In this document: in pieces, positions 57,118 to 57,868 of the stretch
Layout: each line of letters begins with the position of its first letter
Position numbering within the stretch: the first letter of the stretch is position 1
Sequence record: PQ438393.1
Origin: Escherichia phage vB_Eco_J-01
Length of the DNA stretch: 64,000 bases
Reading direction: 5' to 3' (one strand)
The notes under the pieces: model-generated
What the model was told of the DNA's origin: nothing
The model's input: only the letters and a program-made list of their open reading frames with translations
The model's database searches: none
Made by a program: the position numbers and the translations under genes

Positions 57118-57152
57118 CCATTTTTTTAATCTTTTTTCATTTCTTTTTTTGC

Positions 57153-57181
57153 TTGCTATCTATAAAGGAAACGGCTATTAT
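57153..57181 (+). promoter_or_regulatory. divergent sigma70-like promoter
   Basis: TTGCTA, 17 nt, TATTAT. Confidence 0.4.
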
Positions 57182-57228
57182 CTTTCTACCGCGCCAACCA
57201 GGGCGCACATCAAAGAAAGGGCGATACC

Positions 57229-57495
57229 ATGACAAATACTACTTTACACCTTATGCACTCATTGGGCTGGCAAGGCGGCACGGTGCACCAGGTAGCAAGC
57301 GCAACGGGCTTAAAGGTCGAAACCGTTCTCAACCTGGGCGATCATAAGGTGGAAGAAATAGAAAACTTTGATCCGTTCGCTGATGGTTATCTATGGGCTT
57401 GCAGTGGCGGCGGGGAAAGCAAGATCCCGCCAGGGGCGCGGGGCGACATGTATTTTTGGTTAGGTGTCCTTTCCTGGCAAGAAAACAAAAAATAA
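57229..57495 (+). CDS. hypothetical protein in GC-rich island
   Basis: ORF track 88 aa; chosen over overlapping frames; local GC clearly above flanks. Confidence 0.45.
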   Translation: MTNTTLHLMHSLGWQGGTVHQVASATGLKVETVLNLGDHKVEEIENFDPFADGYLWACSGGGESKIPPGARGDMYFWLGVLSWQENKK

Positions 57496-57497
57496 TC

Positions 57498-57526
57498 TTG
57501 ACAAGCCCAGGGATCGGGCTTATACT
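57498..57526 (+). promoter_or_regulatory. sigma70-like promoter driving an ORF-less segment
   Basis: TTGACA, 17 nt, TATACT immediately after gene stop. Confidence 0.5.
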
Positions 57527-57534
57527 GTTTTACA

Positions 57535-57755
57535 TACAGAAGAGGAAACGCCACCCCCACGGCGTAAAGGCGGGGCTAACATACCAGGGGGCACTGGTTG
57601 GAAGGTTGATCGCCGGTAGCTCGTCCAAAATAAATTTGTAAAGAAATGTAAAGATAAAAATAATCGCTTGCTTTTGTTGTTGGTTATGCTATTCTTATTA
57701 TATGGCGAGGGGACACGGGAGCGCGAGACAAACACCGCCCCTGCGCGTTATTTTC
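57535..57755 (+). ncRNA. candidate structured non-coding transcript (speculative)
   Basis: GC-rich, several short inverted repeats, no ORF with plausible start; ends before repeat field. Confidence 0.25.
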
Positions 57756-57756
57756 T

Positions 57757-57868
57757 AAATGAGAAAAATTCTCATTTGCTAATGATTCTCATTCTCTTAA
57801 TGAGAATGATTATCACTTACATACTTAAATGATAATGATTCTCATTTACAAATGAGAATGATTATCAT
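57757..57868. promoter_or_regulatory. cluster of four Fur-box-like sites
   Basis: AAATGAGAAAAATTCTCATTT; AATGATTCTCATTCTCTTAATGAGAATGATTATCAC; AAATGATAATGATTCTCATTT; AAATGAGAATGATTATCAT. Confidence 0.4.

Follow-up and report, generated by a model that had tools for sequence, protein, structure and literature searches.

The locus

Within a 64,000-nucleotide stretch of Escherichia phage vB_Eco_J-01 (PQ438393.1, one strand; this whole stretch is hereafter the window), we analysed a gap of 1.5 kb (56778-58308) between two minus-strand gene blocks, in which a conserved segment named RNA1 directly follows a near-consensus promoter. The source is a phi92-like coliphage, with ~97% identity to Justusliebigvirus alia and its relatives (Stephanstirmvirinae). 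The neighbouring genes all lie on the minus strand, whereas the plus-strand units of the locus fire the opposite way; these comprise a promoter (P0), a small open reading frame (ORF) of 88 amino acids (aa) named ORF88, a second promoter (P1), RNA1, an A/T-rich stretch, a third promoter (P2) and a hairpin (RNA2), ahead of which stand palindromic operators and long direct repeats, or iterons (Table 1). Our comparative results make it very probable that the gap holds a conserved, structured, non-coding RNA locus transcribed by the host polymerase.

A preliminary description of the window had singled out 57150-57760 as a GC-rich island carrying two plus-strand promoters, an 88-aa ORF and an ORF-less segment with short inverted repeats, and all of these were recovered. 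Indeed, the guanine plus cytosine (GC) content of 57150-57760 is 0.484 against 0.371 for the whole window, which corresponds to z ~4 among 600-bp windows (mean 0.371, standard deviation 0.028), where 2 of 1268 windows are as high and 57150-57760 ranks second; elsewhere in the 64 kb, a GC of 0.48 in 300-bp windows is found just at 11651-12000 and 55151-55700. Both promoters were returned by our scan, P1 being the best of the region, and ORF88 is present with an ATG start. From 57535 to 57760, the ORFs are overlapping and unconserved (82 aa; 51 aa with a GTG start; 71 aa on the minus strand), and any reading frame across the central hairpin would be broken, since the length of this hairpin varies among relatives (20, 22, 23, 24, 26, 27 or 28 nucleotides, nt). 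The inverted repeats of this segment are real and coincide with the predicted helices of RNA1 and RNA2. P2 with its hairpin, as well as the operator and iteron array ahead of the transcripts, had been overlooked.

Table 1. Predicted features of the 56778-58308 gap (positions in the window; a dot means no strand)
Feature	Position	Strand	Description	Basis
P0	57153..57181	+	Predicted promoter of ORF88, TTGCTA-17-TATTAT; 48 nt before the ATG	Promoter scan, 9/12
ORF88	57229..57495	+	Small all-alpha protein, phrog_19316	ORF list, homology, AlphaFold2 model
P1	57498..57526	+	Predicted promoter of RNA1, TTGACA-17-TATACT	Scan, 11/12; conservation in relatives
RNA1	57530..57631	+	Conserved, predicted structured RNA	Covariance model, 101 bits, E 7.5e-25
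RNA1 leader	5' element of RNA1	+	Purine-rich	Element list
RNA1 S1	57549-57552 with 57561-57564	+	Helix CGCC/GGCG	Invariant helix
RNA1 S2	C 57555-57558 with G 57573-57575	+	Pseudoknot, loop CCC with downstream GGG	Covarying pair 30:45
RNA1 P3	57580-57587 with 57594-57600	+	Hairpin	Covariation
RNA1 single strand	57602-57619	+	Invariant, AAGGUUGAUCGCCGGUAG	Invariant columns
A/T-rich stretch	57620..57667	+	Two TGTAAAGA copies (57637-57644, 57648-57655)	Alignments
P2	57668..57695	+	Predicted promoter, TTGCTT-16-TATTCT	Homology in alignments; 8/12, under scan threshold
RNA2	57701..57757	+	Candidate RNA; imperfect hairpin 57705-57746, apical GAGACAAACACC, then UUAUUUUCU	Per-sequence folds
Operators	57760..57867	.	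Five overlapping palindromes, TGAGAATGATTATCA / AAATGAGAATGATTATCATTT type; Fur-box 7-1-7 match	Motif and repeat search
Iterons	57889..58094	.	Three direct repeats of 63-75 nt, TTGAACTTTTCATTTT...AAAAACTTTAAATAA	Repeat search; GC 0.209

RNA1 and its promoter

When 57100-57770 was searched against 50,697 phage records, 240 matched, 123 of them with a single place that spans 80% or more of the query. The entire query aligns in close relatives, while in distant Vequintavirinae only query positions ~430-555 of 666 (window ~57529-57654) align, at 72-87% identity. This segment begins right after P1, and no other part of the region is conserved so widely. A covariance model (R1), trained with a nested structure on 13 equal-length sequences, finds one copy per locus, its sole match in the window being RNA1 itself on the plus strand.

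Pairs were counted, over the nested helices and the pseudoknot, in an alignment of 39 sequences fitted to the model. Standard pairs occupy 91% of the cells, a share that drops to 18-45% once partners are shifted by 1-3 columns, and seven pairs show compensatory change on both sides. The covariation score is 0.168 versus 0.061 in shuffles and was reached by 0 of 500 shuffles, with the covariation drawing on few deep lineages. The P3 hairpin is predicted by RNAfold in every member and exists in several sequence versions (ACCAG/CUGGU, ACCGGGC/GCCAGGU, GCCG/CGGC, GCAUACCC/GGGAUGC and GCAGGCCC/GGGCUGC). The pseudoknot is suggested mainly by one covarying pair, 30:45, for which 30 sequences have C-G, 8 have A-U and one deviates. 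S1 never varies, which makes it uninformative for covariation. Invariant positions amount to 35 of the 111 alignment columns and include the 18-nt single-stranded tract AAGGUnnAUCGCCGGnAG. The suggestion that this second unit is a small RNA is backed by conservation, by covarying pairs and by a promoter at conserved distance.

Note that the fold itself allows two topologies. The invariant CGGCG (57560-57564) may pair either with CGCC at 57549-57552, as in S1, or with CGCCG at 57611-57615, these being mutually exclusive, and the latter pairing of GGCG is the one chosen by RNAalifold. RNA1 could accordingly be read as a cis-regulatory sensor, riboswitch-like or a two-state attenuator, which decides whether polymerase coming from P1 passes into RNA2, the operators and the iterons; its H-type pseudoknot with an A-rich third loop, its conserved loop residues and its variable peripheral hairpin resemble a small aptamer. 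Nevertheless, we regard this as unlikely, given that no known riboswitch class was matched at E values up to 10, that no plus-strand ORF lies downstream, and that no conserved terminator/anti-terminator pair was seen; both alternative helices are invariant, which leaves covariation silent on a switch.

The promoter scan of the region gave 11 promoter-like sites versus 4.8 +/- 2.2 in shuffles. At the place of P1, 36 of 37 distinct relatives have a promoter of the sigma-70 type with a score of 9-12.5 out of 12, and 14-21 nt separate the end of its -10 hexamer from a conserved ACGCC. The P1 hexamers are kept across relatives while the spacer sequence drifts, a pattern consistent with a sigma-70 promoter, and the host sigma-70 RNA polymerase apparently reads RNA1 from P1. 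In the window, a GC hairpin (57503-57521) is nested between the -35 and -10 elements and is followed by TATACTGTTTT; in relatives, the spacer differs in sequence and mostly remains a GC hairpin, often with a GCAA, GAAA or GUAA cap (GNRA-type). This hairpin looks like the terminator of the upstream ORF88 messenger RNA, built into the next promoter.

It is mainly because of P1 that we assigned RNA1 to the plus strand. If the conserved elements acted instead as DNA or on the minus strand, whether as terminators or insulators of leftward transcription from the NADAR/endonuclease block or as protein-binding or single-strand-initiation hairpins, no plus-strand RNA gene would be needed. Such a role is in line with three minus-strand terminator-like sites at 57573-57542 (the antisense of the pseudoknot and a U/C-rich tail), with the phiTE annotation, which places a minus-strand terminator inside the RNA2 homologue, and with wobble counts that do not separate the strands. 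However, a terminator requires neither 35 invariant positions, nor a covarying second hairpin, nor a near-consensus plus-strand promoter in 36 of 37 relatives, and the loop of the pseudoknot is A-rich on the plus strand; we consider an action as DNA or on the minus strand improbable.

P2, RNA2 and the A/T-rich stretch

Between RNA1 and P2, TTTGTAAAGA is invariant in the alignments. The A/T-rich stretch at 57620-57667 probably acts as DNA, in the manner of an UP element for P2, a reading based on its position (-38 to -60 from P2) and on its likeness to the UP-element consensus. In Vequintavirinae, P2 has the form TTGCAA-17-TATATT and is preceded by the UP-like AAAATAGTTTTGTAAAGA. The RNA2 hairpin folds at -12 to -22 kcal/mol in the individual sequences, with one shared layout, and its outer stem is 89% paired versus 29-60% when slid; the covariation of this stem is not above that of shuffles (75 of 500 reach it), and RNA2 is presented here as a candidate structured RNA only. 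The tail that follows is UUAUUUUCU in this genus and CAUUCUG or UAUUCUG in Vequintavirinae, where the U-tail is not conserved. A pairing between RNA1 and RNA2 was also considered and, on inspection, had no co-variation support.

Further to the right, the plus strand at 58246-58290 carries a hairpin, GTGGATTTC…GAAACCCAC, followed by ACCCCTTTTTAT and located just before the end (58309) of the convergent NADAR gene. This hairpin may bring rightward non-coding transcripts to an end; its T-run begins too far from the stem for the scan to have called it a terminator.

Operators and direct repeats

Downstream of RNA2, three of the Fur-box-like sites at 57760-57867 differ by one mismatch from TGATAATnATTATCA, the 7-1-7 form of the Fur consensus GATAATGATAATCATTATC. 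Over the window, 34 sites match the Fur consensus with at most three mismatches versus 10.8 +/- 3.5 expected. Except for a 2-mismatch site at 56955, all those with 0-2 mismatches fall into two clusters, 57777-57867 and 46151-47311. The 19-mer consensus occurs five times at up to three mismatches, versus 0.04 expected. In phages of seven host genera, the spacing between the RNA2 hairpin and the first Fur-like box is constant, and L020, one of the relatives, matches the consensus exactly. The operators are apparently of the Fur type and may be regarded as putative binding sites. The control region appears to recruit an iron regulator of the host, an unusual trait in a strictly lytic phage.

In three metagenomic relatives (L050, L051 and L106), RNA1 and P2 are kept and the Fur-like boxes are replaced by GTGACTA… and TGATAACGTGCGGTATCA repeats, which have a similar half-site and a different spacing; this hints that the operator and its binding protein can be swapped.

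The same operators are present in a second ORF-free region of ~1.4 kb (45850-47310), at 46151 (1 mismatch), 46346 (exact TGATAATGATTATCA), and 47239, 47245 and 47297 (2 mismatches each). A cross-comparison of 45850-47310 with 56780-58310 gave the operators as sole shared elements, and no RNA1 copy was found in 45850-47310. Within this second region, TCTTGACAAG…TTCACATAGCGCCCCCTGGAAGGTGGCGC at 46578-46640 repeats two motifs of our locus, CACATAGCG (the RNA2 start in relatives) and GGAAGGTGG (in RNA1), and also contains a GCGCC/GGCGC hairpin; it could be another small transcription unit.

Beyond the operators, direct repeats are annotated at this place as a repeat_region in phage alia, and homologous GATC-rich repeats (…GATTTTGAAAAATCGATCGAGAACC) occur in Vequintavirinae. 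The anatomy of an iteron origin, with at least three direct repeats and AT-rich DNA, is found at 57889-58094, and this combination looks like a replication origin. A pair of AAATATCAG repeats also lies beside the NADAR stop codon (58280-58310).

At the other end of the gap, the minus strand of 56830-57117 carries three good sigma-70-like promoters (TTGACG-17-TATTAT, TTGACG-17-TATCAT and TTGACA-16-TAAAGT) pointing left into a block of small genes. Together with the rightward units, these leftward promoters suggest that the gap is a divergent early control region.

Distribution and the small-ORF slot

RNA1 is carried by Stephanstirmvirinae and Vequintavirinae (rV5-like and phi92-like phages), with one RNA1 per locus, the distant carriers including CR3, CR8, GAP31, phiTE, BIS47, and phages of Salmonella, Erwinia and Serratia. 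The same order of elements is found in phages of E. coli, Klebsiella, Cronobacter, Pectobacterium, Salmonella, Erwinia and Serratia, as follows: an optional small plus-strand ORF, P1, RNA1, TTTGTAAAGA, P2, RNA2 with its apical GAGACAAACACC, one to five TGAGAATGATTCTCA-type palindromes, and three long direct repeats separated by AAAAATTTTTT-type tracts, after which comes the end of the next minus-strand gene. P2, RNA2 and the Fur-like boxes have disappeared from a divergent clade (L110/L114-L116), in which RNA1 still precedes repeats of the AAAAATTTTT type. Pattern scans of IMG/VR and metagenomes returned more members, all on contigs compatible with phages of ~145-153 kb; three identical metagenome matches (L111, L120 and L122) appear to be due to chance, the covariance model giving no match on L111. 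Among bacteria and archaea, scanned with one genome per species (185,579 species), the pattern gave chance matches in high-GC DNA only, and nothing similar was found in 5,426 E. coli genomes or 72,556 plasmids.

Upstream of P1, ORF88 matches phrog_19316 at E 8.5e-59, and among its 21 homologues certain Trp, Gly, Thr and Phe positions never vary. Its AlphaFold2 model is a five-helix bundle with a predicted local distance difference test (pLDDT) score of 94, and it matched no Pfam family and had no sequence or fold neighbour in the PDB. Judging from its homologues, ORF88 is a real protein-coding gene. These homologues are located upstream of RNA1 in many clades, divergent ones included, and ORF88 is the commonest occupant of the slot between P0 and P1, in which other genera hold unrelated small ORFs (DUF7170 and others) or none. 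From this range of occupants, the slot is one that exchanges genes, while the rest of the module shows no such replacement.

These data bear directly on the origin of the GC-rich DNA, for which recent horizontal acquisition had been proposed at first. As a foreign island, the region would consist of a moron-like gene and a small RNA, both newly arrived, and the atypical composition and the unrelated genes that fill the P0-P1 slot according to genus would fit. Yet two phage subfamilies, from seven host genera, have RNA1, P1, the operators and the iterons in synteny, which contradicts a recent arrival for the RNA part. The region is absent from the bacterial and archaeal genomes, E. coli genomes and plasmids that we scanned, and ORF88 itself is the most widespread occupant of its slot. 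Of the usual marks of an island, atypical composition is present (z ~4), and neither patchy distribution, nor an outside donor among bacteria and plasmids, nor a mobility gene was seen. RNA1 has a GC of 53-63% in all phages that carry it, and the high GC is better attributed to a structured RNA and a gene than to foreign DNA. Since the module is syntenic across the two subfamilies, recent acquisition is not supported; a foreign island is very improbable, and the locus is, from its distribution, ancient.

Known families and existing annotation

Rfam 15 (4227 models, including riboswitches, ribozymes, small RNAs and CRISPR, i.e., clustered regularly interspaced short palindromic repeats, direct repeats) gave no match in the whole window at the families' gathering thresholds. 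Relaxing the threshold to E values up to 10 over 56800-58320 gave nothing in 57530-57740, the matches elsewhere being spurious (microRNA-like ones on the AT-rich palindromes of 57742-57875, and a weak osmY RNA at 56959-56996). Several identities were tried and rejected. ARAGORN found no transfer RNA (tRNA) or transfer-messenger RNA in the window or in 11 related loci. Mimicry of, or origin from, a host or plasmid sequence was rejected, as neither bacterial genomes, those of E. coli included, nor plasmids showed a similar sequence. As a CRISPR-repeat mimic (an RNA anti-CRISPR), the likeness of GCGGGGCUAAC to the type I-E repeat is superficial and is lost in CCAA/UUGG variants, and no CRISPR model matched. 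Reading GGAAGGUGGAUC as signal recognition particle (4.5S) RNA or as a Shine-Dalgarno sequence has no covariance-model support, no start codon following it and no conserved mini-ORF, and the tract of GCUCGUCCAAAA, taken as a boxA/nut-like antitermination signal, is not conserved (GUUCG, GGCUG).

Annotations at the locus in the 240 matching records are absent or consist of short "hypothetical proteins", with no RNA annotated; the tRNA-Ile and tRNA-Met annotated in OY978796.1 (L003, 2616-2769) were not reproduced by ARAGORN. Deposited annotations look unreliable here. One record has a 'tail sheath' at this place, several have strings of "hypothetical proteins" of 30-45 aa over RNA1, RNA2 and the operators, and Antha has seven coding sequences beneath the 1.5-kb query. 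No account of RNA1 turned up in our literature searches, nor any of an origin or Fur boxes for these phages. Taken together, these comparisons indicate that RNA1 is a new family of predicted RNA, of a known general kind (phage-encoded structured RNA) and in an unusual setting with Fur-type operators and iterons.

Discussion

We propose, with a probability of roughly 0.4, that non-coding transcripts act in cis on the adjacent origin-like region and that RNA1 forms their structured domain next to the promoter. The host sigma-70 polymerase would start at ~57533-57535 from P1 and produce an RNA1 core of ~85-100 nt, predicted to contain a compact pseudoknot, the variable P3 and the invariant single strand AAGGUnnAUCGCCGGnAG. 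P2 would start ~170 nt beyond the P1 start and give the RNA2 hairpin. Both transcripts would run rightward, against the neighbouring genes and with no ORF ahead, into the operators, iterons and AT-rich DNA, where they might activate or prime replication as the promoter-driven RNAs of the ColE1, T7 and T4 origins do; the conserved fold and single strand may then offer a binding site to a conserved protein, which could be a replication factor of the phage or come from the host. In this scheme we infer the origin role of the repeats, the action of the RNA in cis and the position of its 3' end.

We prefer this cis role because two or three tandem promoters face the iterons with nothing to translate, because no canonical terminator (a hairpin directly followed by a U-run) was seen right after the RNA1 core in any clade, and because RNA1 stays upstream of the repeats in the clade without P2, RNA2 and operators. 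T7 belongs to the Podoviridae group, and its primary origin consists of tandem promoters and an AT-rich region. The cis role is further preferred because the primase/helicase of this phage group, as shown for rV5-like phages, has homologues among Podoviridae primase/helicases (PMC3606486).

Several observations weigh against this proposal. Simple transcriptional activation or priming would need neither 35 invariant positions nor a pseudoknot. The folding energy of 57535-57762 is no better than that of shuffles (z +0.57 on the plus strand and +0.52 on the minus strand), and a comparison of wobble pairs (7 G-U versus 6 A-C) does not tell the strands apart. RNA1 has a GC skew of only +0.11 and is not strongly R-loop-prone. 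RNA2 may be a terminator for the P1 and P2 transcripts in this genus, and a further rightward promoter past the operators in Vequintavirinae suggests that these transcripts may stop earlier. DnaA boxes are not conserved across relatives, and no initiator was identified among the neighbouring genes (NADAR, CapR/T5orf172 endonuclease, AAA ATPase and unknowns). In addition, the rV5 paper marks just a non-coding box, with an uninformative skew (PMC3606486).

The extreme sequence conservation would be better explained by a trans-acting RNA, and we hold this possibility to be almost as likely as a cis role, though still doubtful in itself. RNA1 alone, or an RNA1-RNA2 transcript of ~225 nt ending at the RNA2 hairpin, would then be a discrete and abundant early RNA; its conserved partner, a host or phage factor and possibly ORF88, would be bound or sequestered by it, and its adjacency to the repeats would be mere synteny. 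P1 is predicted to be very strong (11/12) and is conserved, and 35 invariant columns together with a pseudoknot and an 18-nt invariant single strand are typical of RNAs that have a macromolecule or a ligand as partner; however, no partner or target was found, and the 64-kb window contains no complement of the RNA1 single strand or of the RNA2 loop above chance beyond the RNA itself. Likewise, no host or plasmid homologue that RNA1 could mimic exists among the sequences scanned, and no Rfam family matched. With regard to the 3' end, RNA2 with UUAUUUUCU is terminator-like in this genus and the second structured element of the L110/L114 clade has T-runs after it, whereas the U-tail of RNA2 is not conserved in Vequintavirinae. 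As for ORF88, its homologues go with RNA1 in many clades, but in several others it is swapped for unrelated small ORFs or absent. Finally, RNA1 outlasts the loss of P2, RNA2 and the operators, as a trans-acting RNA might.

A bolder extension of the proposed cis role, which we judge unlikely, would make RNA1 the first member of a new class of phage RNAs, pseudoknotted domains that control origin transcripts; host Fur, bound to the intervening operators, would then gate the passage of these transcripts from the two strong promoters of host type to an iteron origin. If true, a virulent phage would make the onset of its DNA replication depend on cellular iron status, and the ~ten Fur sites per genome, once amplified by replication, might titrate Fur. 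More generally, therapy cocktails and reference collections such as BASEL often include rV5-like, phi92-like, PVP-SE1-like and phiTE-like phages. RNA1 is a candidate new Rfam family that flags probable over-annotated ORFs in deposited genomes, and its locus offers a concrete handle for mapping the origin.

Comparison with known systems

In topology, the predicted RNA1 core is like the small aptamers preQ1-I, SAM-II and guanidine-III, which are H-type pseudoknots: S1 is short, residues of the loop pair downstream, and the third loop is rich in A. Unlike them, RNA1 has no Rfam match and no regulated gene downstream. Pseudo-ToxI of phiTE is, like RNA1, a non-coding pseudoknot-forming RNA, and phiTE carries RNA1; however, pseudo-ToxI is built of tandem 36-nt repeats, whereas RNA1 has none and no tandem units occur in 57530-57757. 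The two also occupy different loci in phiTE, the escape locus of pseudo-ToxI being at 106,714-106,772 (PMC3475682) and the RNA1 homologue at 39,680-39,848, and this identity was rejected. T4 species 1 and 2 (RNA C/D) are likewise conserved stable RNA genes, other than tRNAs, of large lytic coliphages; they are nevertheless part of a tRNA cluster and are processed with the tRNAs, while RNA1 has its own predicted promoter in a control region. The put RNAs of HK022 are also structured RNAs located a few nt past a strong early promoter, a position from which RNA1 too could act on its own polymerase, but put consists of two stem-loops without a pseudoknot and has no sequence similarity to RNA1.

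With regard to origins, ColE1 RNA II (with its antisense RNA I) resembles the present locus in its host-polymerase promoter, its non-coding transcript directed toward an origin and its structured 5' domain whose fold matters. In contrast to ColE1, no RNase H site or antisense partner was identified here, iterons are present here and absent there, the sequences are unrelated, and the origin of our phage is one that we infer. The T4 origins ori(uvsY) and ori(34) combine a promoter with an unwinding element and are primed from an R-loop; they and the T7 primary origin (1.1A/1.1B) have, as here, promoters that face AT-rich DNA with no gene to express. Their transcripts carry no conserved pseudoknot, whereas in the phages studied here predicted sigma-70 promoters, putative operators and long iterons precede the AT-rich DNA.

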